Source: Candidatus Saccharimonadota bacterium (GTDB taxonomy: Bacteria > Bacteroidota > Bacteroidia > Flavobacteriales > Blattabacteriaceae). From it: 32,000 nucleotides of DNA. The notes below the pieces were generated by a model, which saw only the letters and a list, made by a program, of their open reading frames with translations, searched no databases and was not told the DNA's origin. Below are positions 4,558 to 29,256 of the stretch, in pieces. Position numbers and translations under genes: made by a program. Location of the stretch: contig NZ_CP059223.1 in NCBI RefSeq assembly GCF_014252415.1, positions 210,001 to 242,000 of the forward strand. The letters are read 5' to 3'. The first letter of the stretch is position 1; each line of letters opens with the position of its first letter.

Positions 4558-6789
4558 ATGAAATTTAATATCAATAACAATACTAATAATTATAACTTAA
4601 AAAAATTCAAAAAAAGTTACTATAATAATAGTATAGTGAAAGCTTTTTTATATGCTACAATATTTTGGGCATTTATAAGTTTTTTAGCAGGATTATTTAT
4701 AGCATTACTTCTTTTTTCACCAAAAATACCTGAGATTGTTTTTGGAGAAAAATTAAAATATACTCAAGGTATGTTTGGATTTGGTAGATGGAGAATGTTA
4801 CATACAAACACTGCTATATTTGCTTTCGTAGGAAACATAATATTTACAGGTTATTATTATTCTTTACAACGTTTATTAAAAACAAGAATATTTAGTGATA
4901 TTCTAAGTTGGATTCATTTTTGGGGATGGCAGATATTTATAGTTTCCACATGGATAACTTTTTTATTAGGAATTAATACAAGTAAAGAATATTCTGAACA
5001 TGAATGGCCTATAGATATATTTATATTATTAATATGGATCATATACGGAATTAATATGATAGGAAGTATTTTAAAAAGAAGGATAAAACATTTGTATGTA
5101 AGTATTTGGTTTTTATTAGGAACATGGGTATCTGTAGCAATGTTGCATATATTTAACAATTTAGAATTACCTATATCTCTTTTATCATTTAAAAGTTATT
5201 CTATATATGCTGGAGTTCAAGATGCATTAATGCAATGGTGGTATGGACATAACGCAGTAGCTTTTATTTTAACCACTCCTATATTGGGGCTAATGTATTA
5301 TTTCGTTCCAAAAGCTTCAAATCAACCTATATTTTCTTATAAACTTTCTATTATTCATTTTTGGTCTTTAATATTTATATATATATGGGCAGGTCCTCAC
5401 CATTTAATGTATACATCACTTCCTAATTGGGCTCAAATGTTAGGTACAATATTTTCTATTATGTTAATTGCCCCCTCCTGGGGAGGTATGTTAAATGGAT
5501 TACTTACTTTAAGAAGTGATTGGGGTAAAGTAAGAAAAGATCCTGTATTAAAATTTTTTGTTGTTGGAATTATTTGTTATGGAATGGCTACATTTGAAGG
5601 TCCAATGTTGGCTACTAAAACTTTAAATTCAATAGGACATTTTACAGATTGGGTAATTGCTCATGTTCATTTAGGAACTTTAGGTTGGAATGGATTTATG
5701 TCATTTGGTATCATATATTGGATAATTCAAAAAATTTGGAATACAAAATTATATTCTAAGTTATTAGCTAATATTCATTTTATTCTTGGTATCATAGGAA
5801 TAATTTTATATATTTTTCCTATGTATCTTAGTTCAATCTTGCAATCATCAATGTGGAAACGTTTTAATTCAGATGGAACATTATCACACAAAAATTTTAT
5901 AGATTCTGTAATATCTATAATACCGTTTTATAAAATACGATTTTTAGGTGGACTTATATATTTGATAGGTTTTATACTAATGATTTACAATATTATAAAA
6001 ACAATTCAGAATGGATTTTTTATAAAAAATGAAGAATTTTTATATAACCCATTTTATTATAATGAAAAAAATAAAAATGAAAAATTTCATAGTTGGTTAG
6101 AAAGAAAACCTATTCAAATGATAATTTTATCTTTATTAGCAGTTGCAATAGGAGGATTAATTGAAATTATTCCTACTATAGTAATTAAATCAAATGTTCC
6201 TACTATTCATAATGTAAAACCATATTCTGCTTTAGAACTAGAAGGAAGAGATTTATTTGTAAGAGAAGGTTGTAATTCATGTCATAGTGCACAAGTTCGA
6301 CCATTTAGAGATGAAGTAGTTCGTTATGGTGAATATTCTAAAGCTGGAGAATTTGTATACGATCATCCGTTTTTATGGGGTTCTAAAAGAACAGGCCCGG
6401 ATTTAGCTAGAGAAGGAGGTAAAAATCCTAGTTCTTGGCATTATAATCATTTATTTGATCCTAGATCAACATCTTCAGGATCAATCATGCCTAGATATCC
6501 GTGGTTAATTTATAATAAATTAAATAGAATTGATACATATAATAAAATTAAAGCTATGATGAAATTAGGAGTACCATATAAATTGGAATACGTAAATACA
6601 TATAATAATGATATGAATAAACAAGCAAAAAAAATTGTTAAGGATATTTATAGTGAATATCCAAAATTGGAAAAAGAAATAAATAAAGAAAAAAATGAAT
6701 TTAAAGATAAATTTATACCTCTAGAAGATAGAGAAGTTATAGCATTAATTGCTTATTTACAAAGAATTGGTACAGATATAAAATCTTAA
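4558..6789 (+). CDS. ccoNO: cbb3-type cytochrome c oxidase, fused subunits I and II (CcoN-CcoO)
   Basis: 743 aa. The N-terminal multi-TM heme-copper oxidase part has WWYGHNAVAF, GPHHLMYT and AHVHLGTLGWNG. The C-terminal part has a TM anchor (MIILSLLAVAIGGLIEIIP) and a single heme-c site CNSCHS, plus GPDLAREG and IMPRYPWL, which are typical of CcoO. The fused arrangement is usual in Bacteroidota. Confidence 0.9.
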   Translation: MKFNINNNTNNYNLKKFKKSYYNNSIVKAFLYATIFWAFISFLAGLFIALLLFSPKIPEIVFGEKLKYTQGMFGFGRWRMLHTNTAIFAFVGNIIFTGYYYSLQRLLKTRIFSDILSWIHFWGWQIFIVSTWITFLLGINTSKEYSEHEWPIDIFILLIWIIYGINMIGSILKRRIKHLYVSIWFLLGTWVSVAMLHIFNNLELPISLLSFKSYSIYAGVQDALMQWWYGHNAVAFILTTPILGLMYYFVPKASNQPIFSYKLSIIHFWSLIFIYIWAGPHHLMYTSLPNWAQMLGTIFSIMLIAPSWGGMLNGLLTLRSDWGKVRKDPVLKFFVVGIICYGMATFEGPMLATKTLNSIGHFTDWVIAHVHLGTLGWNGFMSFGIIYWIIQKIWNTKLYSKLLANIHFILGIIGIILYIFPMYLSSILQSSMWKRFNSDGTLSHKNFIDSVISIIPFYKIRFLGGLIYLIGFILMIYNIIKTIQNGFFIKNEEFLYNPFYYNEKNKNEKFHSWLERKPIQMIILSLLAVAIGGLIEIIPTIVIKSNVPTIHNVKPYSALELEGRDLFVREGCNSCHSAQVRPFRDEVVRYGEYSKAGEFVYDHPFLWGSKRTGPDLAREGGKNPSSWHYNHLFDPRSTSSGSIMPRYPWLIYNKLNRIDTYNKIKAMMKLGVPYKLEYVNTYNNDMNKQAKKIVKDIYSEYPKLEKEINKEKNEFKDKFIPLEDREVIALIAYLQRIGTDIKS

Positions 6790-6827
6790 ATTATAATAAT
6801 AATCTAATAATTTGGAAAAATGTTATC

Positions 6828-7019
6828 ATGAGATTTTTTAAAAATTATTTTACAGGAGAGAAAAATATAGGAATATTTCAATCAACTATATTAATAATAT
6901 TTTTTTTAATATTTTTTTTTATATTATTTATGGTTTTTTCTAAACCAAAAGATTATTATAAAAATGATAGTTTAATAGCTACAGACAATAATTTTGATAA
7001 AAAAAAAAAAAATAGATAA
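6828..7019 (+). CDS. ccoQ: CcoQ/FixQ-like small membrane subunit of cbb3 oxidase
   Basis: 63 aa with one TM helix (ILIIFFLIFFFILFMVF). Called from its position between ccoNO and ccoP and an N-terminus (MRFFKNYF) resembling flavobacterial CcoQ. It ends in a 14-A homopolymer that encodes the lysine run. Confidence 0.6.
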   Translation: MRFFKNYFTGEKNIGIFQSTILIIFFLIFFFILFMVFSKPKDYYKNDSLIATDNNFDKKKKNR

Positions 7020-10679: not shown

Positions 10680-11480
10680 CTAATAGTTATATTTTTCTAT
10701 AAAATTACTTTTACCAAATAAACTAATTACTTTTTTTTTAAAAAAGAAATTATAATTAGATGTATAATAAAAAACTGATGGATTGACCCATTGTGTCGAA
10801 GATAATAATTTTTTTTTCTTTAATTTTTTTTTTATTTCTTTTACAACTATTTTTTGTATATCAATTAAATGTACTTTACCATTATAAAAATTACTTATTT
10901 CATGTTTGATATATAAATAATGAGTGCAAGCTAGTATTAATAATTCTATTGACTTTAATTGAAATAAATAATTACTTATAATATTTATTGATTTTTTTAA
11001 ATTAAAATTATATTCTATGAAATAAGCTAATAATGGTATGGATATTTGAATAATTTTTAAATGATTATAATTTTCTTTTATTTTTTTTATATAAAAATTT
11101 GATTTAGCTGTAGAAGGTGTAGTAATAATACCTATATTTTTGTAAGATAAAAATATTTTATTTCTAACAATAGGATCTATTACATTAAATATTAATATTT
11201 TATTATTAAATTTATTTAAAATTATATCTAATGCATTGGAAGTGATTGTATTACAAGCTATAATAATAGCTTTACATTTTTTTTCATAAAGGAATCTAAC
11301 TATTTTAACAGAATTATTAATAATAAAATCTTTAGACTTATTACCATATGGCATATTAGCGGTGTCTCCAAAATAGATAAAATTTTCATTTGGCATTTGA
11401 TTTTTTATCTCTTTTGCTATTAAAAGACCACCTATACCAGAATCAAATATTCCTATAGGATATTTATCCTCATTTTTCAT
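10680..11480 (-). CDS. murI: Glutamate racemase
   Basis: 266 aa with IGIFDSGIGGL and the two catalytic-Cys motifs IIACNTITS and ILACTHY. Confidence 0.9.
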   Translation of the reverse strand: MKNEDKYPIGIFDSGIGGLLIAKEIKNQMPNENFIYFGDTANMPYGNKSKDFIINNSVKIVRFLYEKKCKAIIIACNTITSNALDIILNKFNNKILIFNVIDPIVRNKIFLSYKNIGIITTPSTAKSNFYIKKIKENYNHLKIIQISIPLLAYFIEYNFNLKKSINIISNYLFQLKSIELLILACTHYLYIKHEISNFYNGKVHLIDIQKIVVKEIKKKLKKKKLLSSTQWVNPSVFYYTSNYNFFFKKKVISLFGKSNFIEKYNY

Positions 11481-11523
11481 AAATTTAAATTATCCTTTAT
11501 GTAATTATAAATTTTATATAGGT

Positions 11524-11766
11524 TTATTTTTTTATAATTATTTTTTTATGTAAATATTTTTTTAATCTAGATGCTTTATTTAAATGTATTATATTTTTTT
11601 TAGATAATTTATCTATCATGGAGATTACTTTGGGATAAGATTTTTTATCTTTATTAATTAATAATTTTTTTATAAGTGTCCTTGTACTTTTATATATGTA
11701 TCTATTTCTAATTCGTTTTATACGATTTTGTCTAATTCTTTTTATAGATGATAAATGATTAGCCAT
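11524..11766 (-). CDS. rpsT: 30S ribosomal protein S20
   Basis: 80 aa, very basic, with the N-terminus MANHLSSIKRIRQNRIKRIRN typical of S20. Confidence 0.9.
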   Translation of the reverse strand: MANHLSSIKRIRQNRIKRIRNRYIYKSTRTLIKKLLINKDKKSYPKVISMIDKLSKKNIIHLNKASRLKKYLHKKIIIKK

Positions 11767-11787
11767 ATTTATTAATGTATTTTTATA

Positions 11788-11859
11788 TAGCCCATAGGGG
11801 AATCGAACCCCTCTTTCCAGGATGAAAACCTGATGTCCTGACCAATAGACGAATGGGCC
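11788..11859 (-). tRNA. tRNA-Glu (anticodon UUC), no encoded CCA
   Basis: Hand-folded cloverleaf on the minus strand. Acceptor GGCCCAT/ATGGGCT (G1-U72 wobble). D-stem GTCT/GGAC with loop ATTGGTCA. Anticodon stem TCAGG/CCTGG with loop TT-TTC-AT. 4-nt variable region. T-stem AGGGG/CCCCT with loop TTCGATT. Discriminator A. Confidence 0.9.
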
Positions 11860-11917
11860 TTATAACAAATTAAATTTTTTTTATGTTTAATACAAGTAAT
11901 AAATGTAAATAATATTA

Positions 11918-14487: not shown

Positions 14488-15345
14488 TTATAATGGATAA
14501 TCTCTCAGATTACTTTCTGGAATCTGATTTAATGCTTTTATTAATTCATTTTTATTAGGAGCTTTTCCATGCCATTCATTTTTTCCAATCATAAAATCTA
14601 CACCATACCCCATTTTGGTATGTAAAATAATTAAAACAGGCTTTTTATTATTAGTTTTTGTTTTTGCTTTTTTTAAAATATTAATTACATGTTCAATGTC
14701 ATTACCATTTTTTTCTTCTAACACTTCCCAATTAAATGATTTAAATTTTTCATTCAAATTACCGAGGGGTAACACTTGATTAGTAGAACCATCAATTTGT
14801 TGTCCATTATAGTCTATAGTAGCTATGTAATTATCTATTTTTTTAGCGCCAGCATATAATACTGCTTCCCAAATTTGACCTTCATTTAACTCTCCATCAC
14901 CATGTAAACTAAATACAGTAGTATTTTTTTCTTTATCTAATTTTTTTGAAATAGCTACACCAATAGAAACAGACATACCTTGCCCTAACGATCCTGAAGA
15001 AATTCTTATTCCTGGTAATTTATCATGAACAGATGGATGTCCTTGTAAACGAGAATTAATCTTTCTAAAAGATGAAAGTTCTGAAATAGGGAAAAACCCT
15101 GATCTAGCTAATATACTGTAGTAAACAGGCGAAACATGTCCATTTGATAAGAAAAAAATATCTTCTCCTTTACCTTCCATAATAAATTTATTTGAATCAA
15201 AATTCATTATTTCACTATATAAGGCTACAAAATATTCCGTAGAACTTAAAGATCCCCCTGGATGTCCTGAGTTTGCATAACTTACCATTCTAAGAATATC
15301 TCTTCTTACTTGATTACATAAATTTTTTAAATAACATATATTCAT
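14488..15345 (-). CDS. tkt: Transketolase, N-terminal (thiamine-diphosphate-binding) subunit
   Basis: 285 aa with SGHPGGSLS, LSNGHVSPVYY, GSLGQGMSVSIG and the TPP motif GDGELNEGQIWEA. Confidence 0.9.
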   Translation of the reverse strand: MNICYLKNLCNQVRRDILRMVSYANSGHPGGSLSSTEYFVALYSEIMNFDSNKFIMEGKGEDIFFLSNGHVSPVYYSILARSGFFPISELSSFRKINSRLQGHPSVHDKLPGIRISSGSLGQGMSVSIGVAISKKLDKEKNTTVFSLHGDGELNEGQIWEAVLYAGAKKIDNYIATIDYNGQQIDGSTNQVLPLGNLNEKFKSFNWEVLEEKNGNDIEHVINILKKAKTKTNNKKPVLIILHTKMGYGVDFMIGKNEWHGKAPNKNELIKALNQIPESNLRDYPL

Positions 15346-15398
15346 TTTAATTCATAAAATTCTAATATCTTTTGTTTCATATAAACAAAATTCATATA

Positions 15399-15406
15399 CA
15401 AAAATA
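15399..15406 (-). promoter_or_regulatory. Candidate -7 box (TATTTTTG) upstream of the tkt-mazG-aroA minus-strand block
   Basis: The plus strand reads caaaaata. It lies 54 nt upstream of the transketolase N-subunit ATG (15345). Confidence 0.3.
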
Positions 15407-15477
15407 TATAATTATATTAATTTTATTAATGAATTTTATTAACTATAAATATTTTACTATAAATTATAATTAAATAA

Positions 15478-15903
15478 ATGAGTATAATAGTAAATAGAAA
15501 AGCTAAATTTCAATATTATTTATTAGATTTCTATCTAGCTGGAATACAATTACTTGGTTCTGAAGTAAAATCAATAAGAAATAGAAAGATTAACATATCA
15601 GAAAGTTTTTGTCAAATCATAAATAAAGAGATGTATATCATTAACTTATATATCGAAAAATATAAATTTGGATCAAATTGTGATACAAGAAGAAAAAGAA
15701 AATTATTGTTAAATAAAAAAGAATTAATAAAAATTAATAAAAAATTAGTAATTCATAGAATGACAATTGTTCCAATTGAAATTTTTTTTAATAAAAAAGG
15801 ATTCATCAAAGTAAAAATAGCAATAGCAAAAGGAAAAAAAAATTATGATAAAAGAGAAATTAAAAAAAATAAAGAATTAATAAAGGAAATAAATCAATAT
15901 TAA
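15478..15903 (+). CDS. smpB: SsrA-binding protein (trans-translation)
   Basis: 141 aa with NRKAKFQYYLLDFYLAGIQLLGSEVKSIR, RKRKLLLNKKE and a basic C-terminal tail. Confidence 0.9.
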   Translation: MSIIVNRKAKFQYYLLDFYLAGIQLLGSEVKSIRNRKINISESFCQIINKEMYIINLYIEKYKFGSNCDTRRKRKLLLNKKELIKINKKLVIHRMTIVPIEIFFNKKGFIKVKIAIAKGKKNYDKREIKKNKELIKEINQY

Positions 15904-15951
15904 TATTATAAATAAATTTTTATTATTTTATATTTTATATTCCTATTTATT

Positions 15952-15959
15952 TATATTTG
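15952..15959 (+). promoter_or_regulatory. Candidate -7 box (TATATTTG) upstream of the repeat-tailed OM protein gene
   Basis: Exact TAnnTTTG match 33 nt upstream of the ATG at 15992. Confidence 0.3.
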
Positions 15960-15991
15960 TTTTAAGATTCTAAAGAAATTTATAGTTTATT

Positions 15992-17653
15992 ATGAAAAAC
16001 GTAAGTATTTTTATTGTCGCTTTACTTGCTTTTTTTTCTAATCTTTTTTCTCAAAATGAGGAAAACGAAAAAAATGTAAAAAAAAATTTATCTATAAAAT
16101 TAGGAACAAGCGACATCAATTTTTTTTCTGAAAAAAATCCTTTTGAAGGTTTTTTTTCTTATAATAATAATAGCATAGGTCCATCTTCTAATATAGAATT
16201 AGGATATAATATTAATGACCGTATAGGTCTTTATGTAGATGGAACCTTAGGGTTGGTAAAAAATCATAGATGGAAAGTAGGTAATTCTCAATTTGCTAAA
16301 TTGAGTAGTGGATTAAAAGTTCACGCATTACCCGATCATCAAATTGATCCTTACCTAAGATTAGGTGGTGGATATCATAGATCCAATGCATATTTAAAAA
16401 ATGATTTAAAAATTTCTGAGACACAATTATTCAGAACAAATAAACAAAATTTTCCACTTATAGATGGAGGAATTGGAGTAAATTTTTGGGTACATCCCAA
16501 TGCAGGAATGAATATAAGTAGTACTTATAATCATGTTTTTTCAAAACAATCAAAAAATTATTTAGATTTTTTAAAACATGATATAGGTTTAATATTTCGT
16601 TTTAAAAATTTTTTAAATAAGGAAAGTAATGAAAAGAAGATAATTTCTTCTTTATCAGACAATGAAAAAGATAAAAATCTAAAACAAAATGATAAAGATA
16701 ATCCTAAAGATGATCTAAAAGATTCAAATAAAAAATTAGATGATGATGATGAAAAATTAAATTTGAAAAAAAAACAGTTAATTACAAATTTAAATAATGA
16801 TTTATTTTCTGGATTAAAATTCATTGATAAAGACAAAAACAAATACGAAGACAAAAATAAAGAACAAGATAAAAACAAAGACGAAGACAAAAATAAAGAA
16901 CAAGATAAAAACAAAGACGAAGACAAAAACAAAGACGAAAACAAAAACAAAGACGAAAACAAAAACAAAGACGAAAACAAAAACAAAGACGAAAACAAAA
17001 ACAAAGACGAAAACAAAAATAAAGACGAAGACAAAAACAAAGACGAAGACAAAAACAAAAACGAAAACAAAAATAAAAACGAAAACAAAAACAAAGACGA
17101 AAATAAAAACAAAGAACAAGATAAGACTACTGGTAAAAAACAACCTGAAAAATCTAATAATCAACCTATTATTGATGAAGAAAAACTAATATCTGATAAT
17201 AATACAAAAAGTTTTAAAAAAAATAACAAAAAACAAAAAGGAAAAAAAACACAAAATAATAAGAAAAATCCTTCTAAAAAGAAAACTGAAAAACCTTCTA
17301 AACCTTCTAGGGGTGCTAACAAGAAACCTTCTAATAAATGGGGTGCTAAAAGAAAACCTAATAAATGGGGTGCTAACAAGAAACCTTCTAATAAATGGGG
17401 TGCTAAAAGAAAACCTAATAAATGGGGTGCTAAGAGAAAACCTAATAAATGGGGTGCTAAGAGAAAACCTAATAAATGGGAGGCTAAGAAAAAACCTAAT
17501 AAATGGGGTGCTAAGAGAAAACCTAATAAATGGGAGGCTAAGAAAAAACCTAATAAATGGGAAGCTAAGAAAAAACCTAATAAATGGGAGGCTAAGAAAA
17601 AACCTTCTAATAAATGGGAGGCTAAGAAAAAACCTTCTAATAAAAAAAAGTAA
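15992..17653 (+). CDS. Outer-membrane beta-barrel protein (small OmpA-TM/OMP_b-brl type) with a long repeat-built charged C-terminal tail
   Basis: 553 aa. Signal-peptide-like N-terminus MKNVSIFIVALLAFFSNLFSQ. Residues about 30-205 show beta-strand periodicity and end in DIGLIFRF. The remaining ~350 aa are low-complexity: a [D/N]KNK[D/N/E][E/Q] array, then 11 copies of NKW[G/E]AK[R/K]KP. No OmpA_C-like region is visible. Confidence 0.7.
   Translation: MKNVSIFIVALLAFFSNLFSQNEENEKNVKKNLSIKLGTSDINFFSEKNPFEGFFSYNNNSIGPSSNIELGYNINDRIGLYVDGTLGLVKNHRWKVGNSQFAKLSSGLKVHALPDHQIDPYLRLGGGYHRSNAYLKNDLKISETQLFRTNKQNFPLIDGGIGVNFWVHPNAGMNISSTYNHVFSKQSKNYLDFLKHDIGLIFRFKNFLNKESNEKKIISSLSDNEKDKNLKQNDKDNPKDDLKDSNKKLDDDDEKLNLKKKQLITNLNNDLFSGLKFIDKDKNKYEDKNKEQDKNKDEDKNKEQDKNKDEDKNKDENKNKDENKNKDENKNKDENKNKDENKNKDEDKNKDEDKNKNENKNKNENKNKDENKNKEQDKTTGKKQPEKSNNQPIIDEEKLISDNNTKSFKKNNKKQKGKKTQNNKKNPSKKKTEKPSKPSRGANKKPSNKWGAKRKPNKWGANKKPSNKWGAKRKPNKWGAKRKPNKWGAKRKPNKWEAKKKPNKWGAKRKPNKWEAKKKPNKWEAKKKPNKWEAKKKPSNKWEAKKKPSNKKK
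16826..17125 (+). repeat. In-frame 18-bp tandem repeat array (about 16 units) encoding [D/N]KNK[D/N/E][E/Q]
   Basis: Read directly. The unit gacgaaaacaaaaacaaa starts at 16934, 16952, 16970, 16988 and 17006; the first four copies are identical and the fifth differs by one nt. Diverged units flank them, including a duplicated 36-bp super-unit (gacaaaaataaagaacaagataaaaacaaagacgaa) near 16850-16921. Confidence 0.9.
17312..17643 (+). repeat. In-frame 27/30-bp tandem repeat array (11 units) encoding Trp-containing polybasic nonapeptides
   Basis: TGG codons lie at 17339, 17366, 17396, 17423, 17450, 17477, 17504, 17531, 17558, 17585 and 17615. The spacings are 27 nt except for two of 30 nt. There are two unit families: ...tggggtgctaagagaaaacctaataaa (WGAKRKPNK) and ...tgggaggctaagaaaaaacctaataaa (WEAKKKPNK). 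Confidence 0.9.
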
Positions 17654-17804
17654 ATCATTTGTAAAACATGAAGAAAAAAAATGAACTATTCATAGTTTGT
17701 TTTTCATGTTTATAAAAAAAAATACTTTTTTTAAAAAATTATTTAAATTCAAATTCTTTTAAAAAAGAATTAATAATTTAATTAATCTATTTTTTTATTT
17801 TAAT

Positions 17805-17848
17805 AAAATCCTCTTGTATTTTAATATATAAGAGGGTTTTATTTTTTT
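17805..17848 (+). terminator. Candidate intrinsic terminator (hairpin plus T-run) downstream of the repeat-protein gene
   Basis: Stem aaaatcctctt (17805-17815) pairs with aagagggtttt (17830-17840): 11 bp including one G-U pair, with 4 G-C pairs. The loop is 14 nt and the stem is followed by atttttttg. It overlaps the tatC stop codon on the other strand. Hairpins are easy to find in DNA this AT-rich, so confidence is modest. Confidence 0.35.
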
Positions 17849-18621
17849 GAAGAAATCCATAAACTTATTTGATAAAGAATAATCATTGGTATTAATACTA
17901 TAATTGTACTTATTATATCTCCTGGGGTAATTGCGGATGCAATAATCAATTTTATTAGAAATGCATGTTTTTGATATTTTTTTAGAAATTTATGGGAAAT
18001 TAAATTTATTTTAGATAGAAAATAAATGAAACATGGAAATAAAAAAATAATCCCCATTAATAATATAGAATTTGTAATTATTGAAATATAATCAGATAAA
18101 TCAAATATATTTTTTGGGATATAACTAATTTTAAAGAAGTAAGAAAAATGAATTAAAAATGGACATAATATGTAATATCCAAAAAAAATTCCAGTAGAAA
18201 ATAAAATAAACATTATAAAAAAAATTTTTTTACAAAATTTTTTTTCTTTTTTAGAAAGAGCAGGGTTTATAAAGCCCCATAATTCATAAAAAATAAATGG
18301 AAAAGATATAATTATTCCTCCAATTAAACTAGTCCATATGTAAACATTAAATTGTCCAAACATTTTTCTATTTTGTATATATAAGTCTTTTTCAAAAAAT
18401 TGATGAGAGTTATATTTTATTATATTTTTTGTAATATATTTTAGTAAACGATAGGATATAAAATTCATTTTAGATGGACCAAATATTATTATATCAAATA
18501 CAATATGTTTATTAAGCATTAAAAAAATCATAGAAATAATAATTACGATAATACAACGAATTATACGAATCCTTAATTCTTCAATATGTTTCCAAAATGG
18601 CATTTTTATTTTTTTATTCAT
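17839..18621 (-). CDS. tatC: Twin-arginine translocase subunit TatC
   Basis: 260 aa. N-terminus MPFWKHIEELRIRIIRCII (the HLxELR motif of TatC), six predicted TM segments, and a PFIFYELWGFINPAL-type motif. Confidence 0.85.
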   Translation of the reverse strand: MNKKIKMPFWKHIEELRIRIIRCIIVIIISMIFLMLNKHIVFDIIIFGPSKMNFISYRLLKYITKNIIKYNSHQFFEKDLYIQNRKMFGQFNVYIWTSLIGGIIISFPFIFYELWGFINPALSKKEKKFCKKIFFIMFILFSTGIFFGYYILCPFLIHFSYFFKISYIPKNIFDLSDYISIITNSILLMGIIFLFPCFIYFLSKINLISHKFLKKYQKHAFLIKLIIASAITPGDIISTIIVLIPMIILYQISLWISSKK

Positions 18622-18651
18622 AAATTTTTCAAATTTAAAACGATAAACAAC

Positions 18652-19704
18652 ATGAAATGTGGAATTATAGGATTACCAAATATTGGTAAATCCACGTTAT
18701 TTAATATTGTATCTAATTCTAAAGCTTTATCAAAAAATTTCCCTTTTTGTACTATAAACCCTAATTATGGAATAATCAAAATATTAGATAAAAGATTGAC
18801 TGAATTAGAAAAAATTATTAATCCTTTGAAAATCACACCATCTGAAATAAAAATAGTTGATATAGCTGGTTTAATAAAAGGATCTCATAAAGGAGAAGGG
18901 TTAGGAAATAAATTTTTATCTCATATTCGTGAAACAAATGCTATCATTCATATGATACGTTTTTTTTATGACGAAAGTATCACTCATGTAGAAGGAAATA
19001 TTGATCCAGTTAGAGATAAAGAAATTATTGATACTGAATTACAAATGAAAGATTTAGAATCTATAGAAAAAAAAATATATCAAATTTCTCGTTTATATAA
19101 CAGTAATTATAATAAAAATGAATTTTATATTTTTTTAAAAAAAATCTTAAATTTTTTAATAAAAGGAAATAATATAAGAACATTTCCATTTAAAAAATGG
19201 GAAAAAAAATCTTTAGAAGAATTAAATTTATTGACTATCAAACCTATTTTATATATTTGTAATGTTAATAATTTTAATGATTTATATAAAAATTTAAAAA
19301 TAAAACAATTAAAAAAAATAATAAATAAAGAATCATCATCCATTTTATTTATTTCTTTAAAAAATAAAATTTGTTTCGATTTTGATAAATTTTTATACGA
19401 AATTATTTCTTTGCTTAATTTAAAAACATTTTTTACAGTAGGAAAAAATGAAGTTCGAGCTTGGAATATTCCAAAATCGTATACAGCATATGAAGCATCT
19501 TCTGTTATCCATACTGATTTTCAAAAAGGATTTATAAAAGCAGAAATTATTCATTATGATGATTATATTCAATATAAATCTGAGTATAATTTAAAAAAAT
19601 TAGGAAAAATTTTTTTATCTGGAAAAGATTATATCATTAATGATGGTGATATTGTTACTTTTCGATTTAATATTAATAAAAAAATTTTTTATAATCGTTG
19701 TTAA
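18652..19704 (+). CDS. ychF: Ribosome-binding ATPase YchF (Obg-family GTPase)
   Basis: MKCGIIGLPNIGKSTLFN (P-loop), FCTINPN, VDIAGLIKGSHKGEGLGNKFL, and C-terminal TGS-like GKDYIINDGDIVTFRFN. The ORF track starts at 18586, which overlaps the tatC start. The canonical start MKCGIIG is the ATG at 18652. Confidence 0.9.
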   Translation: MKCGIIGLPNIGKSTLFNIVSNSKALSKNFPFCTINPNYGIIKILDKRLTELEKIINPLKITPSEIKIVDIAGLIKGSHKGEGLGNKFLSHIRETNAIIHMIRFFYDESITHVEGNIDPVRDKEIIDTELQMKDLESIEKKIYQISRLYNSNYNKNEFYIFLKKILNFLIKGNNIRTFPFKKWEKKSLEELNLLTIKPILYICNVNNFNDLYKNLKIKQLKKIINKESSSILFISLKNKICFDFDKFLYEIISLLNLKTFFTVGKNEVRAWNIPKSYTAYEASSVIHTDFQKGFIKAEIIHYDDYIQYKSEYNLKKLGKIFLSGKDYIINDGDIVTFRFNINKKIFYNRC

Positions 19705-20754: not shown

Positions 20755-21543
20755 TTAATAATTAATTGATCCTTTAAAAACAAATTTTACAGGACCGGTT
20801 AAATAAATATTTTCGTATTTATCATCTTTTTTTTCAAAAGACACTAATAAAATTCCACCTAAAGTAATAACTTTTATATTATTTTTCTTATTTATTTTTT
20901 TTGTTTCTACAAATGCAATGACTGATGCAACTACTCCAGTTCCACAAGATAAAGTTTCATTTTCTACTCCTCTTTCATAAGTTCTTACATATAAATAATT
21001 ATTATATATTTTTACGAAATTTACATTAACCCCATTTTTATATAAATTACTATATCTAATTTTTTTACCTTCTTTATACACATTAATATTTTCTTTTTTA
21101 TTTAAAAAAATAATATGATGAGGAGATCCTGTAAATAAAAAAGTATATTTTTCATATATTTTTATACTTTTTTTATCTATAGAAACAATATCAATAGATA
21201 TATTATTTTTTTTATGTATTAATCCTTGATGAGGTCCATTAATTGTATTAAAAAAAATTTTATTAGAATTCGTAATTCCTAACATATTAGAAAAATATAC
21301 GGCACACCTACCTCCATTTCCACACATAGTACCTTCTATTCCATTTGCATTATAATATTTCATATAAAAATTATATTTAGGATCTTTTTTTATTAAAATT
21401 AATCCATCAGATCCAATACCAATATGTCTATTACATAATTTTTTTATAAATTTTGGATCATTATGTATTTTCATTCCATGAAAAGAATTTATGATAATAA
21501 AATCATTTCCTGTTCCATGAAATTTAAAAAAATCAATTTTCAT
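20755..21543 (-). CDS. dapF: Diaminopimelate epimerase
   Basis: 262 aa with FFKFHGTGNDFIII and the two catalytic-Cys motifs MCGNGGRC and LSCGTGV. Confidence 0.9.
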   Translation of the reverse strand: MKIDFFKFHGTGNDFIIINSFHGMKIHNDPKFIKKLCNRHIGIGSDGLILIKKDPKYNFYMKYYNANGIEGTMCGNGGRCAVYFSNMLGITNSNKIFFNTINGPHQGLIHKKNNISIDIVSIDKKSIKIYEKYTFLFTGSPHHIIFLNKKENINVYKEGKKIRYSNLYKNGVNVNFVKIYNNYLYVRTYERGVENETLSCGTGVVASVIAFVETKKINKKNNIKVITLGGILLVSFEKKDDKYENIYLTGPVKFVFKGSINY

Positions 21544-21669: not shown

Positions 21670-23013
21670 ATGAAGAAAATAATTTTTTATATTATATTAA
21701 CTAGTTTTATTAGTTCAGTAATAAGTATTGCAGCATATAAAAAATATCTTGAAAAAGAATCTTTTATATTTCCATACAATACTTCTTCTACTATTAAAAA
21801 TAATAGACGATCATTCTCATCATTGAATAATGAATATCATAATGATTTCACTAAAGTAGTAGAAAAAACTGTACATTCAGTTGTTAATGTAAGAAATTTT
21901 TCAAAAAATACAAATAATTATAATTTTGATCCATTTGAATTTTTTTTTGGATTTCCTAATAATGAATTTAATAGAGATAATGGTAATAAATTTCAAGAAG
22001 GTGGTAAAGCACCAATATATCATGGATCAGGCGTTATAATATCATCTGATGGATATATCGTAACTAATCATCATGTTATAAAAAATTCATATAAAATTGA
22101 AGTTACACTTAATGATCAAAGAATTTATAAAGCTAGATTAGTAGGAACTGATCCTAGTACTGATGTAGCTTTACTAAAAATAGAAGAAAAAAATTTACCA
22201 TTCGTATATTTTTCTGATTCTAATAAAGTAAAAGTAGGAGAATGGGTTTTAGCAATAGGAAATCCATTTGATTTAAATTCAACAGTTACAGCTGGAATAA
22301 TTAGTGCTAAAAATAGAAGTTTAGGAATATTAAGAGAAGAAAATATATCAGCAATTGAATCATTTTTTCAAACAGATGCAGCAGTAAATCCTGGAAATAG
22401 TGGGGGTGCTCTATTAAATACTAATGGTGAGTTAATTGGAATTAATACAGCTATTTCCTCTTCTTCAGGAAACTTTATAGGATATAGTTTTGCAGCACCT
22501 TCCAATTTAGTATTAAAAGTAGTTCAAGATATAAAAAAATATGGGGAAGTAAAAAGAGCATTTTTAGGTATTAAGGGAATGGATTTATCTAAAATAGAAT
22601 TATTAAAATTTTTTAATAAAAGAAATAATAAAAATGTTCAACCACAATCAGGGTTTTTAGTCGGAGAAGTTTTTTATGGAGGTAGTGCTTATGAAGCAGG
22701 AATTAAAAAAGGAGATATTATAAAAAGTATAAATAATAGTAGTATTAGAAATGTTTCAGATCTTTCATTTATTATAGGTATTAAAAGACCTGGAGATTAT
22801 ATAAAAATTATTGTATTACGTGATAAAACTTTGAAAAGTTTCAATGTTTTATTAAAAAGTATTTATGGAACAGATGATAAAACAAAAGAAAATAAAAGTC
22901 AAACAAAATCTACATCAAATTTATTAAATTACACATGGAAATCATTAATTGAAAAATATCATAAATATTTTAATATATTTATTTTCATTCATTATTTCTT
23001 TTACAATAAATAA
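21670..23013 (+). CDS. htrA: HtrA/DegP-family periplasmic serine protease with a single PDZ domain
   Basis: 447 aa with an N-terminal signal/anchor. Catalytic triad contexts: TNHHV, TDVALLKI and GNSGGAL. One PDZ (GFLVGEVFYGGSAYEAGIKKGDIIKSINN). An odd 50-aa tail overlaps the next gene. Confidence 0.85.
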   Translation: MKKIIFYIILTSFISSVISIAAYKKYLEKESFIFPYNTSSTIKNNRRSFSSLNNEYHNDFTKVVEKTVHSVVNVRNFSKNTNNYNFDPFEFFFGFPNNEFNRDNGNKFQEGGKAPIYHGSGVIISSDGYIVTNHHVIKNSYKIEVTLNDQRIYKARLVGTDPSTDVALLKIEEKNLPFVYFSDSNKVKVGEWVLAIGNPFDLNSTVTAGIISAKNRSLGILREENISAIESFFQTDAAVNPGNSGGALLNTNGELIGINTAISSSSGNFIGYSFAAPSNLVLKVVQDIKKYGEVKRAFLGIKGMDLSKIELLKFFNKRNNKNVQPQSGFLVGEVFYGGSAYEAGIKKGDIIKSINNSSIRNVSDLSFIIGIKRPGDYIKIIVLRDKTLKSFNVLLKSIYGTDDKTKENKSQTKSTSNLLNYTWKSLIEKYHKYFNIFIFIHYFFYNK

Positions 23014-24055
23014 ATATTGTATATATGGAAGTTATAAAATTTGGAATCCATATAAAATATGGGGGTATATAATTTTTTGATGAAAATATATTTATAATTT
23101 CCATTAAAAATATATATAAAAATATTACAATAATTCCAATAATTATATTTTTTCCTAAATCATTTTTTCTATTTGAAGAAATAGATAAACCTAATATTGT
23201 AAATATTAATGCAGAAAAAGGTAAAGCAATTCTTTTATGATATTCATTTAAATAAATATTTTTATCTGTATTATTTATTTTAATTATTTTGTTTAATTCA
23301 TTTATACTCATATTCTCAGAAACATAGTCATCCGGACTTAATTCATCAGGACTTGATGTGATTTTTAATATTTTATATAATCCACTTTTAGACGAGTCAT
23401 AGTTTTTATTAAAAAAAATTTCCTTATAATTATATACTATATAATATTTATTTTTTTTAGACCAGAAAATATATTTAGACTTTAGTAAGTAGATTAAATT
23501 TTTATTATCAAACACTTCATATACACATTTATGTCCTACATTATTAATTCTTGAAAAATTTTTTATAAATAAATATTTATTTTTATCTATTTTAGCTGTT
23601 AAAGCTTCATTATTACCATATAATTCTTTATAAGAACTTACTAAATATTGAGAATGAAATTTATTTTTTTTTTTATTAACTGTTGGTAATACATAAAAGT
23701 TAATTATTAAATTAATTAATCCTATTATAAAAGCAAATATTAAATAAGTAATAGCTATTCTTCCATAGCTAATTCCATTAGCTAATAAAGTAGTAATTTC
23801 TGAATTTTTTGTAATTTTAGATGTAAAAAATATTATAGATAAGAAAAGAGATATGGAAGAAAATGTATTAATTATCCATATAGACCAAAATGGATAATAA
23901 TCAATTATTGCATTTTTTATAGAAGAATTATTATTGTCTAATCTATGTATCCTTTGTGGAATATCTATAATTACACATATAATTTGCATTGAAATTGTAA
24001 AAAAAATAAAATATTTTATAAAATTTTTAATCAAATAACAATCTATTATTTTCAT
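22985..24055 (-). CDS. LptF/LptG-family LPS export permease (YjgP/YjgQ)
   Basis: 356 aa. N-terminus MKIIDCYLIKNFIKYFIFFTISMQIICVIID, TM segments at both ends, and a central periplasmic beta-jellyroll-sized region. This is the typical family layout. I cannot tell LptF from LptG. Confidence 0.7.
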   Translation of the reverse strand: MKIIDCYLIKNFIKYFIFFTISMQIICVIIDIPQRIHRLDNNNSSIKNAIIDYYPFWSIWIINTFSSISLFLSIIFFTSKITKNSEITTLLANGISYGRIAITYLIFAFIIGLINLIINFYVLPTVNKKKNKFHSQYLVSSYKELYGNNEALTAKIDKNKYLFIKNFSRINNVGHKCVYEVFDNKNLIYLLKSKYIFWSKKNKYYIVYNYKEIFFNKNYDSSKSGLYKILKITSSPDELSPDDYVSENMSINELNKIIKINNTDKNIYLNEYHKRIALPFSALIFTILGLSISSNRKNDLGKNIIIGIIVIFLYIFLMEIINIFSSKNYIPPYFIWIPNFITSIYTIFIYCKRNNE

Positions 24056-26628: not shown

Positions 26629-28107
26629 ATGAAAAAAACATTAAAATATGTTTTAAATGGAGTAAACATATTAAATATAATAGGAAAATATGATAACAAA
26701 TCAATAAATGGAATATGTATAAATTCTAAAAATGTAAAATCTAATACAATATTTATTGCAAATAAAGGAATCAATACAAATGGAAATTTGTTTATAAAAC
26801 AAGCTATTTATAATGGAGCTAGTGTGATTGTTTGTGAAAAACATCCTCTATTTATATATAAAAATATAACTTATGTAATTGTTCATGATTCTAAAGAAGC
26901 GTTAGGAATTATATCTTCTAACTTTTATAATAATCCAACAAAAAAAATAAATTTAATAGGTATTACTGGGACAAATGGAAAAACAAGTGTAGCTGTTATA
27001 TTACATCAATTATTTTCTAATTTAGGAGAAAAAAATATTCTTATTTCTACCATAGGTATTAAAATATCATCTAAAATATATTATACTGAATATACAACTC
27101 CTAATATTATTGAGATTAATAAATATTTAAACTTATCAATAAAAAAAGGATGTAAATATGCATTTATGGAAGTAAGTTCACACGGAATTGATCAAAAAAG
27201 AATTTCTGGATTATTTTTTAAAGTAGGAATATTTACGAATATTACTCATGATCATTTAGACTATCATAAATCGTTTAATGATTATTTATTTGTTAAACAA
27301 CAATTTTTTAATCAATTAACAAAAAAATCTTTTTCTATAATCAACATTGATGATAAAAATTATTCAAAAATAATAGAAGGTAGTGTAAATAAAATTTATT
27401 TTTATGGAATTAATAATAAAAATGCAGATTTTAAAATAAAAATATTAAATAAATCTTTTAATGGTACTAAAATTCTTATTAATAATAAAAATAAAATAAA
27501 TATTAATTTTATTGGAAAATTTAATGCTTATAATGTTTTAGCGAGTTATGCAGCTTCTGTTTTATTAGGAATGAATTATAAAATTATTTTAAAAAATTTA
27601 AGTTTATTACACCCTGTAATGGGGAGATGTGAACAGTATGTATCAAAATGTGGAAAACGTATAATAATTGATTATGCACATAATCCAAATGGACTAAAAA
27701 ATGTTATAAATTCTATTAAGGAAATAATAAAAAATATTAATATTAATTTAATATGTGTAATAGGATGTGGAGGAAATAGAGATATTTCAAAACGATCTAT
27801 TATGGGAAAAATTGTTAATGAAATGTGTAATATATCTATATTTACATCAGATAATCCAAGAAAAGAAAATCCATTAAATATAATAATGGATATGAAAAAA
27901 CTTCTTTCTATAAAAGAAAAAAAATCTATTATTACTTTTATTGATAGAAAAACGGCAATTCATTACGCAATTAAATTATCAAATAAAGGAGATATTATTT
28001 TAATAATGGGAAAAGGACATGAAAATTTTCAAGAAATAAATGGAATAAATTATCCATTTAATGATATGAAAATTGTAAAAAATTTTTTAGAAAAAAATAA
28101 TGATTAA
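26629..28107 (+). CDS. murE: UDP-N-acetylmuramoyl-L-alanyl-D-glutamate--2,6-diaminopimelate ligase
   Basis: 492 aa with GITGTNGKTS, HLDYH, and DYAHNP. The DNPR motif (TSDNPRKENP) is characteristic of meso-DAP-adding MurE. Confidence 0.9.
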   Translation: MKKTLKYVLNGVNILNIIGKYDNKSINGICINSKNVKSNTIFIANKGINTNGNLFIKQAIYNGASVIVCEKHPLFIYKNITYVIVHDSKEALGIISSNFYNNPTKKINLIGITGTNGKTSVAVILHQLFSNLGEKNILISTIGIKISSKIYYTEYTTPNIIEINKYLNLSIKKGCKYAFMEVSSHGIDQKRISGLFFKVGIFTNITHDHLDYHKSFNDYLFVKQQFFNQLTKKSFSIINIDDKNYSKIIEGSVNKIYFYGINNKNADFKIKILNKSFNGTKILINNKNKININFIGKFNAYNVLASYAASVLLGMNYKIILKNLSLLHPVMGRCEQYVSKCGKRIIIDYAHNPNGLKNVINSIKEIIKNININLICVIGCGGNRDISKRSIMGKIVNEMCNISIFTSDNPRKENPLNIIMDMKKLLSIKEKKSIITFIDRKTAIHYAIKLSNKGDIILIMGKGHENFQEINGINYPFNDMKIVKNFLEKNND

Positions 28108-29242
28108 TCATTACATTATTTTTAGATCTTTAATTTCTATTTTTTTTTCTTTTTTTTTATCATTTTATTTATATAAATGGATGATAATTTGGAATAAAAA
28201 GAATAATTTTATAACAGAAAATATACGTCATTTAGGTATTAAAGGTGAAAAAAAGAAGATAGGTATTCCTACTATGGGAGGATTAATTATAATAATTTCT
28301 ACACTAATTCCTACTGTATTATTTTCTTATTTAAATAATATTTATATTATTATATTAATTATTACTACTGTATGGATGGGACTTATTGGTTTTTTAGATG
28401 ATTTTATTAAAATCAAATATAATAAAAATGGATTGAGTATTATTGAAAAAATATTAGGTCAAATAATTATTGGGGTTTTTATTGGAGCTATTATGTATTT
28501 TAATCCATCTATTAATAGATCCGTAAATAAAAATTTTTTATTCGAAAAAAATAAATATGGATTTAAAACAACAATACCAAGATTTTTTAAAAAAAATAAA
28601 AATGAATTTAATTATTCTAATTTATTAAATTGGTTTAAGAAGGATTTAGATAAATATACATGGATTATTTTTATACCAGTTATTATTTTTATAATAGTTT
28701 TTATATCTAATGGATCTAACATAACTGATGGAATAGATGGATTAACAGCTGGAGTTTCACTAATCATATTAGTGACATTAATTTTAATATCTATTATTTC
28801 AAGCAACAAAAATTATTCTAGTTATTTACATTGTATTTATGTTCCAAATATAGATGAGACAATAATATTTTCAATCTCTATGATTGGATCTTTAATAGGA
28901 TTTTTATGGTATAATACTTATCCAGCACAAATTTTTATGGGAGATACTGGTAGTCTTACTCTAGGTGGAATAATATCAGTATTATTAATTATGAATAGAA
29001 TAGAATTTATTTTTCCTATTTTATGTGGTATATTTTTAGTTGAAAATTTATCTGTAATTATACAAGTACTTTATTTTAAATATACTAAAATTCAATATAA
29101 AATTGAAAAAAAATTTTTTTTAATGTCTCCAATACATCATCATTTTCAAAAATTAGGTTATCATGAAAATAAAATATGTATTCGTTTTATTATTTTTCAA
29201 ATAATTTTATCTATTTTATCAATAATTTTTATAATTATGTAA
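28100..29242 (+). CDS. mraY: Phospho-N-acetylmuramoyl-pentapeptide transferase
   Basis: 380 aa polytopic membrane protein with PTMGGL, GFLDDFIKI, NGSNITDGIDGL, FMGDTGSLTLGG and PIHHHF. Confidence 0.9.
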   Translation: MINHYIIFRSLISIFFSFFLSFYLYKWMIIWNKKNNFITENIRHLGIKGEKKKIGIPTMGGLIIIISTLIPTVLFSYLNNIYIIILIITTVWMGLIGFLDDFIKIKYNKNGLSIIEKILGQIIIGVFIGAIMYFNPSINRSVNKNFLFEKNKYGFKTTIPRFFKKNKNEFNYSNLLNWFKKDLDKYTWIIFIPVIIFIIVFISNGSNITDGIDGLTAGVSLIILVTLILISIISSNKNYSSYLHCIYVPNIDETIIFSISMIGSLIGFLWYNTYPAQIFMGDTGSLTLGGIISVLLIMNRIEFIFPILCGIFLVENLSVIIQVLYFKYTKIQYKIEKKFFLMSPIHHHFQKLGYHENKICIRFIIFQIILSILSIIFIIM

Positions 29243-29256
29243 CAATCATAATTTTA

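Follow-up and report, generated by a model that had tools for sequence, protein, structure and literature searches.

In OmpA, a short, Pro-rich hinge connects the barrel to a folded domain that binds peptidoglycan. The four main tethers between the outer membrane (OM) and the cell wall are OmpA, Lpp, Pal and OmpM; some obligate intracellular bacteria have no recognisable tether at all and may depend on other means (bioRxiv 10.1101/2021.05.31.446380). A comparison of 67 Blattabacterium strains reported massive parallel gene loss, with genomes of 511–645 kb (PMC8382890). Here we describe an OmpA-family orthologue in a 32-kb stretch of DNA (contig NZ_CP059223.1, positions 210,001 to 242,000 of the forward strand; G+C ~22%), referred to as the window. 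An open reading frame (ORF) with an ATG start, lying between smpB and the convergent tatC, encodes a 553-aa product, in agreement with the initial annotation (Table 1). RefSeq proteins of Blattabacterium cuenoti matched the window SmpB (15478-15903) and ten further neighbours exactly, thus the window belongs to this flavobacterial cockroach endosymbiont. In the Blattabacterium genome-erosion literature we found no account of domain loss or repeats in this OmpA gene.

The protein keeps a selected 8-stranded OM barrel, while the peptidoglycan-binding module carried by several of its orthologues can no longer be detected, and a disordered tail of 349 residues (205–553), enlarged by two young minisatellites, stands after the barrel instead. 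The complete reading, in which this tail would also have kept a weak role as tether or spacer, we regard as evenly balanced between right and wrong.

The barrel and its orthologues

Residues 1–20 of the product, a putative Sec signal peptide, read MKNVSIFIVALLAFFSNLFS and are followed by Q, with a hydrophobic stretch at residues 4–19 and a helix modelled at residues 2–19 by AlphaFold2 (AF2), which was run on a 32-sequence alignment. The ...FSQ junction is kept across orthologues. As there is no Cys, the protein is not a lipoprotein.

A small 8-stranded OM barrel ending in DIGLIFRF had been proposed in the initial annotation of this DNA, and Pfam, AF2 and Foldseek agreed on it. The full protein scored 32.7 bits against the Pfam family OMP_b-brl (PF13505; gathering cut-off 28.7) and residues 1–210 scored 35.5 bits, the match at residues 8–204 covering positions 2–175 of the 175 in the model. 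Eight strands were modelled (33-43, 65-73, 78-91, 96-111, 118-131, 153-166, 171-182 and 193-204), with a predicted local distance difference test (pLDDT) of 80–97 in the barrel block. The top Foldseek matches in the PDB were all 8-stranded OM barrels, namely Ail, NspA (TMt 0.74), the transmembrane part of OmpA, the N-domain of OprF (0.71), OmpX and OmpW. With a score above the threshold, eight strands and an aromatic end (...IFRF) at residue 204, the barrel is a member of OMP_b-brl (MBB clan). A search of the protein against NCBIfam gave nothing meaningful.

Where the N- and C-termini lie, the modelled turns have 4–6 residues, while the opposite loops reach 21, one of them with a small hairpin. 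Because the short turns lie on the side of the termini and the long loops opposite, and following the precedent of the OmpA family, the C-terminus and the tail would be periplasmic, as the initial annotation had supposed from the even number of strands. Compared with the sister strain L081 (Nei-Gojobori), the barrel showed a nonsynonymous distance (dN) of 0.10, a synonymous distance (dS) of 0.40 and an omega of 0.25; it is kept under purifying selection in the window lineage.

An exhaustive search of representatives, with residues 1–210 as the barrel query, detected 27 homologues, the closest eight of which are B. cuenoti proteins. A word-indexed protein search found no match with the barrel alone and 8 relatives when an alignment was used. 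The distant homologues resemble proteins of the free-living Flavobacteriia type, and most of them combine the barrel with thrombospondin-type-3 (TSP3) repeats and OmpA_C. Pfam OmpA (PF00691) is present in P0004, P0007, P0029, P0030 and P0033, and TSP_3 together with OmpA in the free-living homologue P0012. Judging from these domain arrangements, the ancestral form is a Flavobacteriia OmpA-family protein with a signal peptide, an 8-stranded barrel, TSP3 and OmpA_C.

We compared the window with ten other Blattabacterium loci (L001 and L081-L089). With the window included, the gene lies between smpB and tatC in 11/11 loci, and the window barrel is 37–81% identical to those of its orthologues. This shared slot in 11 strains, together with the homology of the barrel and five orthologues with OmpA_C, places the gene by descent in the OmpA family.

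Loss of the peptidoglycan-binding module

The fate of the region after the barrel differs between the loci. In L083, L085, L087 and L088 (genomes of 629–640 kb) a TSP3-like region and OmpA_C are intact, within tails of 189–290 aa. Three orthologues are reduced to the barrel (L001, L086 and L089; 222–240 aa with tails of 25–38 aa), the DNA being deleted to 10–58 nt before tatC, and P0031 (206 aa, from Logan data) resembles them. Thus, the smpB-tatC comparison uncovered relatives that hold the barrel without the tail, a case that the initial annotation had asked about. The remaining tails are free of domains: that of L081 (P0002) has 229 aa and is K/N/S-rich and repeat-free; that of L082 (P0009) has 154 aa, with an 11-aa unit (33-nt period) present four times and then TNKKK 12 times; and that of L084 (P0006) has 337 aa, with a 25-aa unit present four times followed by a basic 22-aa unit present three times.

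As orthologues in the same slot carry TSP3-like and OmpA_C regions, the window tail occupies the site of the former peptidoglycan-binding module. The earlier suggestion that the tail stands where such a domain usually lies was thus borne out, by these orthologues and by the free-living homologues with TSP3 and OmpA_C. Neither the full protein nor the tail gave a PF00691 match at E <=10, although searches of this kind detected the domain in five orthologues. When the C-terminal halves of the orthologues were searched by tblastn against the window, in all frames and including the 185 nt downstream, the best E values were 0.5–1.4 in a tiny database, and hhalign of the tail against the TSP3/OmpA_C regions gave a Prob of 0.1 (E 0.53). 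For TSP3 (PF02412) there was no Pfam match and no Cys in the tail, the best hhalign pairing being LDDDDEKLN with DSDNDGVLD (E 0.53). We also considered the motif LITNLNNDLFSGLKF, directly before the first array, as a relic of the TSP3 sequence '...CPNQFGLKKF' or of the OmpA_C start 'PILF..' (P0006); the two readings contradict each other, neither is significant and neither was used. As far as the domain searches tell, the window OmpA orthologue is no longer able to contact peptidoglycan via OmpA_C.

A neighbour-joining tree was built from seven concatenated flanking proteins (2022 columns). The window and L081 (83.8% identity) grouped together with 100% bootstrap and joined L084 and L086 (99%), all four being without OmpA_C. 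L082 grouped weakly (60%) with the OmpA_C-bearing L085 and L087, and the short pair L001/L089 was sister (56%) to the OmpA_C-bearing L083 and L088. Allowing for the poorly supported deep nodes and for long-branch effects that may be present, the tree implies at least two to three losses of OmpA_C.

Two groups of homologues were noted beside this comparison. P0029 (458 aa) and P0003 (332 aa, annotated 'partial') represent one OmpA_C-bearing lineage with an amplified TSP3 module, whose 27-aa unit CPNQFGLKKF[Q/H]GCPDTDLDNIPDQEDS is present in three identical copies. As the module is amplified in this lineage, intact domains do not prevent the region after the barrel from being a hot spot of slippage. 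P0020, P0022 and P0025 (Logan-derived or unnamed) are K/N-rich homologues, seemingly from AT-rich and possibly symbiotic Flavobacteriia, with the barrel and a degenerate TSP3 and/or OmpA_C; in P0025 the OmpA_C core is barely recognisable. Similar erosion may occur outside Blattabacterium.

Composition of the tail and origin of its arrays

The composition of residues 211-553 is K111 N59 D34 E29 P18 S16 A12 L11 W11 G10 Q9 I7 T6 R6 F3 Y1; V, M, C and H are absent. Hydrophobic residues make up ~10% of the tail, so the earlier description of a tail nearly free of them was roughly right. AF2 gave a pLDDT mostly <50 and no secondary structure for the tail. The conserved motif LITNLNNDLFSGLKF, with no structure predicted, is identical to P0002 LITNLNNDLLYGLKF in 13/15 residues.

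A near-neutral array followed by a basic one had been described from the sequence alone, and both were recovered by Tandem Repeats Finder (TRF) and by a table of the units, which counted 16 and 11 of them. Units of array 1 read DKNK and then DE, EQ or NE, with a net charge of -2 for the whole array (TRF period 18, 15.7 copies, 89% matches, score 419), and four identical units stand in succession. Array 2 has a net charge of ~+44 with the C-terminal end included (TRF period 27, 11.7 copies, 90% matches, score 424), and the distal block of spacer and array 2 reaches ~+57. Many neighbouring units do not differ in their DNA sequence. The two arrays make up ~60% of the tail, their copy numbers being those of the assembly; since all units are multiples of 3, an error in copy number would leave the frame intact. 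No other tandem array of the window exceeded a TRF score of 77.

A Pfam search of residues 211-553 found no domain. A tail-only search of 5.8 billion proteins returned five weak matches (E 5e-6 to 7e-4), four of them with tetratricopeptide repeat domains; we rejected these as low-complexity noise, and the two with a BLASTP alignment cover <=10% of the query. A match of the tail to NELF-E in a PDB sequence search (E = 0.025) was rejected for the same reason. That the tail might be a common, already annotated domain, which the initial annotation had named as a possible objection, is thus not borne out. We further rejected as genes five shadow ORFs, at 16558-17112 (-), 16814-17164 (-), 17161-17658 (-), 16824-17189 (+) and 17313-17684 (+); long frames arise over the arrays because the T-poor repeats are without stops in several frames. 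The arrays were also rejected as a known RNA element, as there was no Rfam match there, and as a CRISPR, as they are without spacers.

Reducing each array to a single unit leaves a window tail that is collinear with the repeat-free tail of P0002, at 48% identity. Among the landmarks that both hold are LITNLNNDL(FS/LY)GLKF, (K)QPEKSN and TEK..RG.N.K.SNK. Array 1 is placed between GLKF and KQPEKSN, where L081 has ~19 non-repeat residues; the beginning of the spacer, KQPEKSNNQP, aligns with QKPEKSNEKP of P0002; and the final unit of array 2 can be aligned, as DNA, with the single-copy sequence HSNKRPNKKRSNTNK of L081. Since the collapsed tails are collinear and the last unit of array 2 is single-copy in L081, both arrays represent amplified, pre-existing tail sequence. 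No array of TRF score >=100 was found in L081. The arrays thus seem specific to the window lineage and younger than its split from L081, as their loss in L081 would be less parsimonious. They expanded in frame from a single-copy tail, most simply by replication slippage or unequal recombination.

Across the 11 loci (~150 kb), all arrays of TRF score >=100 sit in the part of the smpB-tatC gene after the barrel, in four lineages. Their periods are 15, 18, 27, 33, 54, 66 and 75 nt; the units are unrelated and all are multiples of three. No comparable arrays (TRF >=100) were found in the intergenic DNA or in the other genes of these loci.

Two of the other loci deserve a separate description. In L085, whose P0007 keeps TSP3 and OmpA_C intact, the stretch that links the barrel to TSP3 holds a 54-nt unit repeated 4.2 times in frame (6653-6878; GVSSSDSTVVKEEEEKEK). 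The arrays at 7208-7680 of L084 (75-nt and 66-nt units) are richer in G+C than is usual in Blattabacterium genomes, with a tail G+C of ~0.35 against ~0.17-0.26 in the other tails; the units of P0006 are Ser/Thr/Gly/Pro/Gln-rich and Arg/Gly/Lys-rich, unlike the K/N repeats of the window.

Probable constraint on the tail

The initial annotation had found it unexpected that about 1 kb of low-complexity sequence stays in frame in so compact a genome. This surprise was justified, since constraint is indicated by omega as well as by a neutral simulation. Shuffles that preserved the composition of the tail had a mean of 28 in-frame stops and none of 20000 was open, while the real tail has 0 stops. 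The non-repeat segments were also shuffled separately: ~8 stops were expected in the proximal tail (70 codons; P = 5e-5 for the open frame) and ~5.6 in the spacer (64 codons; P = 0.002). In the tail as a whole, 181/349 codons are one substitution away from a stop.

Base composition points in the same direction. The tail has 0.57 A and 0.17 T, while the intergenic DNA of the window has 0.41 A and 0.43 T. T at codon position 2 specifies hydrophobic residues; its frequency there is 0.07 in the tail and 0.32 in the barrel. In the alignment of the proximal tail with L081 (Nei-Gojobori), 45/67 residues are identical, with a dN of 0.23, a dS of 0.87 and an omega of 0.26.

Neutral evolution was simulated under the F81 model with intergenic base frequencies. 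The probability of a stop-free frame was <0.001 at 0.2 substitutions per site, for the 229-codon tail of L081 or for the 138 non-repeat codons of the window, and this distance is about half of the synonymous distance between the window and L081 (barrel dS 0.40). These results indicate constraint and a tail that is not purely neutral, and the expression signals of the gene (see below) and the confinement of the arrays to this one locus point the same way. It is probable that the tail is translated, exported to the periplasm with the C-terminus of the barrel, and kept stop-free and hydrophilic by selection.

Features and surroundings of the locus

Table 1 Features of the smpB-tatC gene and its flanks, with positions in the window
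Feature	Position	Strand	Basis
-7 promoter box TATATTTG, fitting TAnnTTTG, 40 nt upstream of the ATG	15952..15959	+	Conserved across loci
Whole ORF, OmpA-family orthologue without OmpA_C	15992..17653	+	Pfam search, barrel homology
Putative signal peptide, residues 1-20, cleavage probably before Q21	15992..16051	+	Hydrophobic core, conserved junction
8-stranded OM beta-barrel, residues 33-204, last strand ending in DIGLIFRF	16088..16603	+	PF13505, AF2, Foldseek
Proximal tail (residues 205-278), without repeats, disordered, of net charge 0	16604..16825	+	AF2, sister alignment
Conserved motif LITNLNNDLFSGLKF, residues 263-277, directly before array 1	16778..16822	+	P0002 alignment
Array 1, 16 in-frame 18-nt units [D/Y/E/N][K/E/Q][D/N]KNK, near-neutral	16826..17113	+	TRF, unit table
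K/N/Q/P-rich non-repeat spacer, net charge ~+13	17114..17329	+	Collinear with P0002
Array 2, 11 in-frame 27- or 30-nt units (S)NKW[G/E]A[K/N][R/K]KP	17330..17635	+	TRF, unit table
C-terminal SNKKK and TAA stop, beside an A8 homopolymer	17636..17653	+	Comparison with L081
Terminator-like hairpin with a T run behind it, which the convergent tatC shares at its 3′ end	17802..17843	+	Terminator scan

The -7 promoter consensus of Bacteroidetes is TAnnTTTG. The octamer TATATTTG lies 29–42 nt upstream of the orthologous start in 10/11 of the Blattabacterium loci, against a window background of 0.75 per kb per strand. A scan for sigma-70 promoters, a model unsuited to Bacteroidetes, showed no enrichment (16 found, 18.5 expected). 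The hairpin behind the gene is the sole terminator-like site in 15300-18000 (1 found, 0.6 expected).

At the 3′ end, the reading frame of the sister L081 runs ~35 codons beyond the homologous position, and each of the three window frames is interrupted by stops downstream. If the A8 run is shortened by one A, the window frame is lengthened by ~10 codons (SNKKSKSFVKHEEKK*) and then matches ...KSF... of the sister (17636-17700). This suggests, on sequence grounds, a recent homopolymer slip at the 3′ end of the ORF.

The genes for peptidoglycan synthesis in the window are intact (murE 26629-28107, mraY 28100-29242 and murD 29176-30651), as are ftsW (30626-31774), a murI-like racemase gene (10680-11480) and dapF (20755-21543). 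Of the genes for envelope upkeep, lptF/G (22985-24055) and that of an HtrA-type protease (21670-23013) are intact as well. Since murE, mraY, murD, ftsW, the murI-like gene, dapF and lptF/G are intact, peptidoglycan and lipopolysaccharide are presumably still made.

Between rpsT and aroA, four larger genomes carry a gene for an NlpC/P60 protein (peptidoglycan hydrolase; L085:1350-1925, L087:1457-1759, L088:1472-1981 and L089:1617-1973), of which the L087 and L089 copies are already shortened. The gene was not called in L081, L082, L083, L084 or L086. In the window, the position is a 437-nt gap (11481-11917) that holds a tRNA and is too small for the gene; this tRNA (11788-11859) was the sole match in an Rfam scan of the window. 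In part, the pattern follows the loss of OmpA_C, although L083 and L089 do not fit, and it gives a hint of a joint erosion of cell-wall functions.

Three further observations concern neighbouring genes. L001 uses the conserved YchF start MKCGIIG; the YchF ORF of the window (18586-19704), as called, begins 22 codons before this point and overlaps the tatC start on the opposite strand; the true start is probably an ATG ~66 nt downstream, around 18652. At 4558-6789, one 743-aa ORF joins the COX1 (CcoN) and FixO (CcoO) domains of the cbb3 oxidase, and FixP-like and FixH-like genes come after it. In the strain of P0009 (L082:5216-6008), tatC is split into two called genes of 79 and 76 aa and is probably a pseudogene.

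Possible roles of the tail

The tail could act as a flexible spacer, whose polycationic distal block, punctuated by Trp and Pro, would bind anionic peptidoglycan or phospholipid head groups non-specifically. Weak tethering or spacing of the OM would persist in this way after the specific contact between OmpA_C and peptidoglycan was lost. Such an electrostatic role in the periplasm is speculative; it is our best guess, but more likely wrong than right. Still less probable is the wider proposal that several Blattabacterium lineages independently evolved a sequence-nonspecific disordered tether, its length tuned by in-frame minisatellites, as a fifth mode of OM coupling in an organelle-like symbiont.

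Several observations weigh against a selected, working tail. A stop-free frame within the arrays is trivial after the amplification of one stop-free unit, so the open frame of the arrays is uninformative. The omega of the proximal tail is noisy, as it comes from 67 codons of a low-complexity alignment that favours identities. The extreme C-terminus is not conserved between the window and L081, the latter being ~35 codons longer while the window stops by the A8 run. For the family as a whole, a long tail is dispensable, because three strains and P0031 hold orthologues of 206–240 aa with the tail DNA deleted. The tails are also unlike between lineages and the sister is without both arrays, therefore any function of the tail must be compositional and not sequence-specific. 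Even the order of charges is shared with the intact orthologues, which run from neutral or acidic to basic (half charges of -25/+27, -11/+8, -3/+18 and 0/+15), the acidic half being TSP3 and the basic half OmpA_C. This order may be inherited rather than newly selected.

In the main rival explanation, only the barrel would matter: after OmpA_C ceased to function, the coding sequence behind the barrel would have drifted, driven by AT, to K/N-rich low complexity and then been inflated by replication slippage, in DNA that is very rich in A and poorly repaired, the tail being a tolerated by-product without a role, much like the N/K-rich inserts in other AT-rich genomes. Barrel-only orthologues in several lineages, the unrelated tails with their fast turnover, the absence of a domain or of predicted structure, the eroding 3′ end and the young arrays with identical neighbouring units would all agree with this, as would the raised mutation rates and the lost mutation-rate genes of small-genome Blattabacterium lineages (PMC8382890). 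Such drift should, however, have led towards the composition of neutral DNA, where A and T are about equal (0.41/0.43), and not to the 0.57 A, 0.17 T and position-2 T of 0.07 found in the tail. The simulation predicts stops by d = 0.1-0.2, yet both tails are open in strains at a dS of ~0.4, the non-repeat segments are stop-free (P = 5e-5 and 0.002) and the proximal omega is 0.26. Moreover, tails that are not kept were deleted and not left as a long open frame, and the intergenic DNA and other genes of the 11 loci show no comparable arrays. We take a by-product to be rather unlikely.

Two other explanations seem far less probable. The initial annotation had raised the idea of a surface-exposed tail as a polycationic interface with the host-derived membrane. 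Such a tail would form a size-variable coat towards this bacteriocyte membrane or towards host antimicrobial peptides, its in-frame repeats giving variation in length as in the size-variable repeat proteins of mycoplasmas. In-frame arrays did arise independently in four lineages at this one locus, and a strong positive charge with regularly spaced Trp is a composition of the membrane-binding type; nevertheless, in the model, the even number of strands and the turns of 4–6 residues on the side of the termini place the C-terminus in the periplasm, as in OmpA, the orthologues carry periplasmic TSP3/OmpA_C at the position of the tail, and no secretion signal or C-terminal sorting domain was detectable. 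We consider this very improbable. We give no more weight to a non-working product, whose copy number or frame is a short-read assembly artefact or which belongs to a decaying pseudogene. The arrays (288 and 306 nt) are close to a typical short-read length, eleven neighbours are in the protein collection but the exact 553-aa product is not, and the stop lies beside the A8 run. On the other hand, all units are 3n in length and copy-number errors would be frame-neutral, the barrel (omega 0.25) is under purifying selection and conserved in all 11 strains, and the promoter box is conserved as well (10/11 loci). Between the RefSeq accessions of the neighbours, exactly three numbers (WP_185878078-080) are also free for the three genes from SmpB to the M42 peptidase, which suggests an annotated protein here.

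What the selected barrel with a remodelled tail offers is a single orthologous locus which, in close symbionts, shows the full series from an intact tether, through a barrel whose tail has decayed or consists of repeats, to a barrel alone. It is a natural case of an envelope tether remodelled by a shrinking genome, and it opens the questions of how the envelope is built after the loss of a peptidoglycan-binding module and which residual function a disordered, charged tail may have. It also provides a clean example of selection holding a low-complexity frame open, although unused DNA is otherwise deleted from this genome. Should the tail prove inert, the locus could still serve to mark how domains erode, and where slippage is frequent, in reduced genomes.

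Comparison with known systems

The nearest relatives are the B. cuenoti orthologues P0004 (WP_185872424.1, 421 aa) and P0007 (WP_185856385.1, 501 aa), which share with the window protein the slot, the putative signal peptide with its ...FSQ junction, the TATATTTG box and a homologous barrel (phmmer E 1e-57 to 5e-44, ~47-50% identity). They differ in that the window protein is without TSP3, tail Cys and OmpA_C and has the disordered two-array tail instead. Based on these sequence relations, the protein belongs by descent with the Flavobacteriia barrel-TSP3-OmpA_C proteins, and by domain definition (no PF00691) it is outside the OmpA family.

E. coli OmpA and Pseudomonas OprF show the same barrel fold (Foldseek E 1e-7 to 1e-5, TM up to 0.71 for the OprF N-domain), although barrel identity is only ~15%, and the same plan of a barrel followed by a low-complexity hinge into the periplasm. 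In the window protein, however, the 'hinge' runs for 349 residues and has no terminal domain. The best structural matches were OmpX, Ail, NspA and OmpW, a class to which the short Blattabacterium orthologues of 206–240 aa effectively belong. Those proteins end at the last strand, whereas the window protein runs on for 349 residues.

The initial annotation had compared the tail with the spacers that span the periplasm in TonB and in domain II of TolA. The likeness holds for composition only, namely a periplasmic mixed-charge block followed by a basic, Pro-containing one; the tail shows neither (EP)n(KP)n dipeptide runs nor a predicted helix, and the protein is without TonB_C and without an inner-membrane anchor, its N-terminus being a putative cleavable signal peptide ahead of the barrel. 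The window protein is anchored in the OM and not in the inner membrane, is without a TolA C-terminal domain and has no sequence similarity to either protein. Pro recurs every 9–10 residues and not in dipeptides as in TonB, and, unlike TolA, no helix was predicted and no Pfam or PDB match was found in residues 205-553.

Finally, the tail resembles the N/K inserts of AT-rich genomes and the Vlp-type lipoproteins of mycoplasmas, which are likewise in frame, charged, lineage-specific and fast in their change of copy number. In contrast to these, a conserved envelope protein has here exchanged a defined domain for the window repeats, in a mutualist that is obligate and inherited vertically, the tail is periplasmic by its predicted topology, and its non-repeat parts show constraint.

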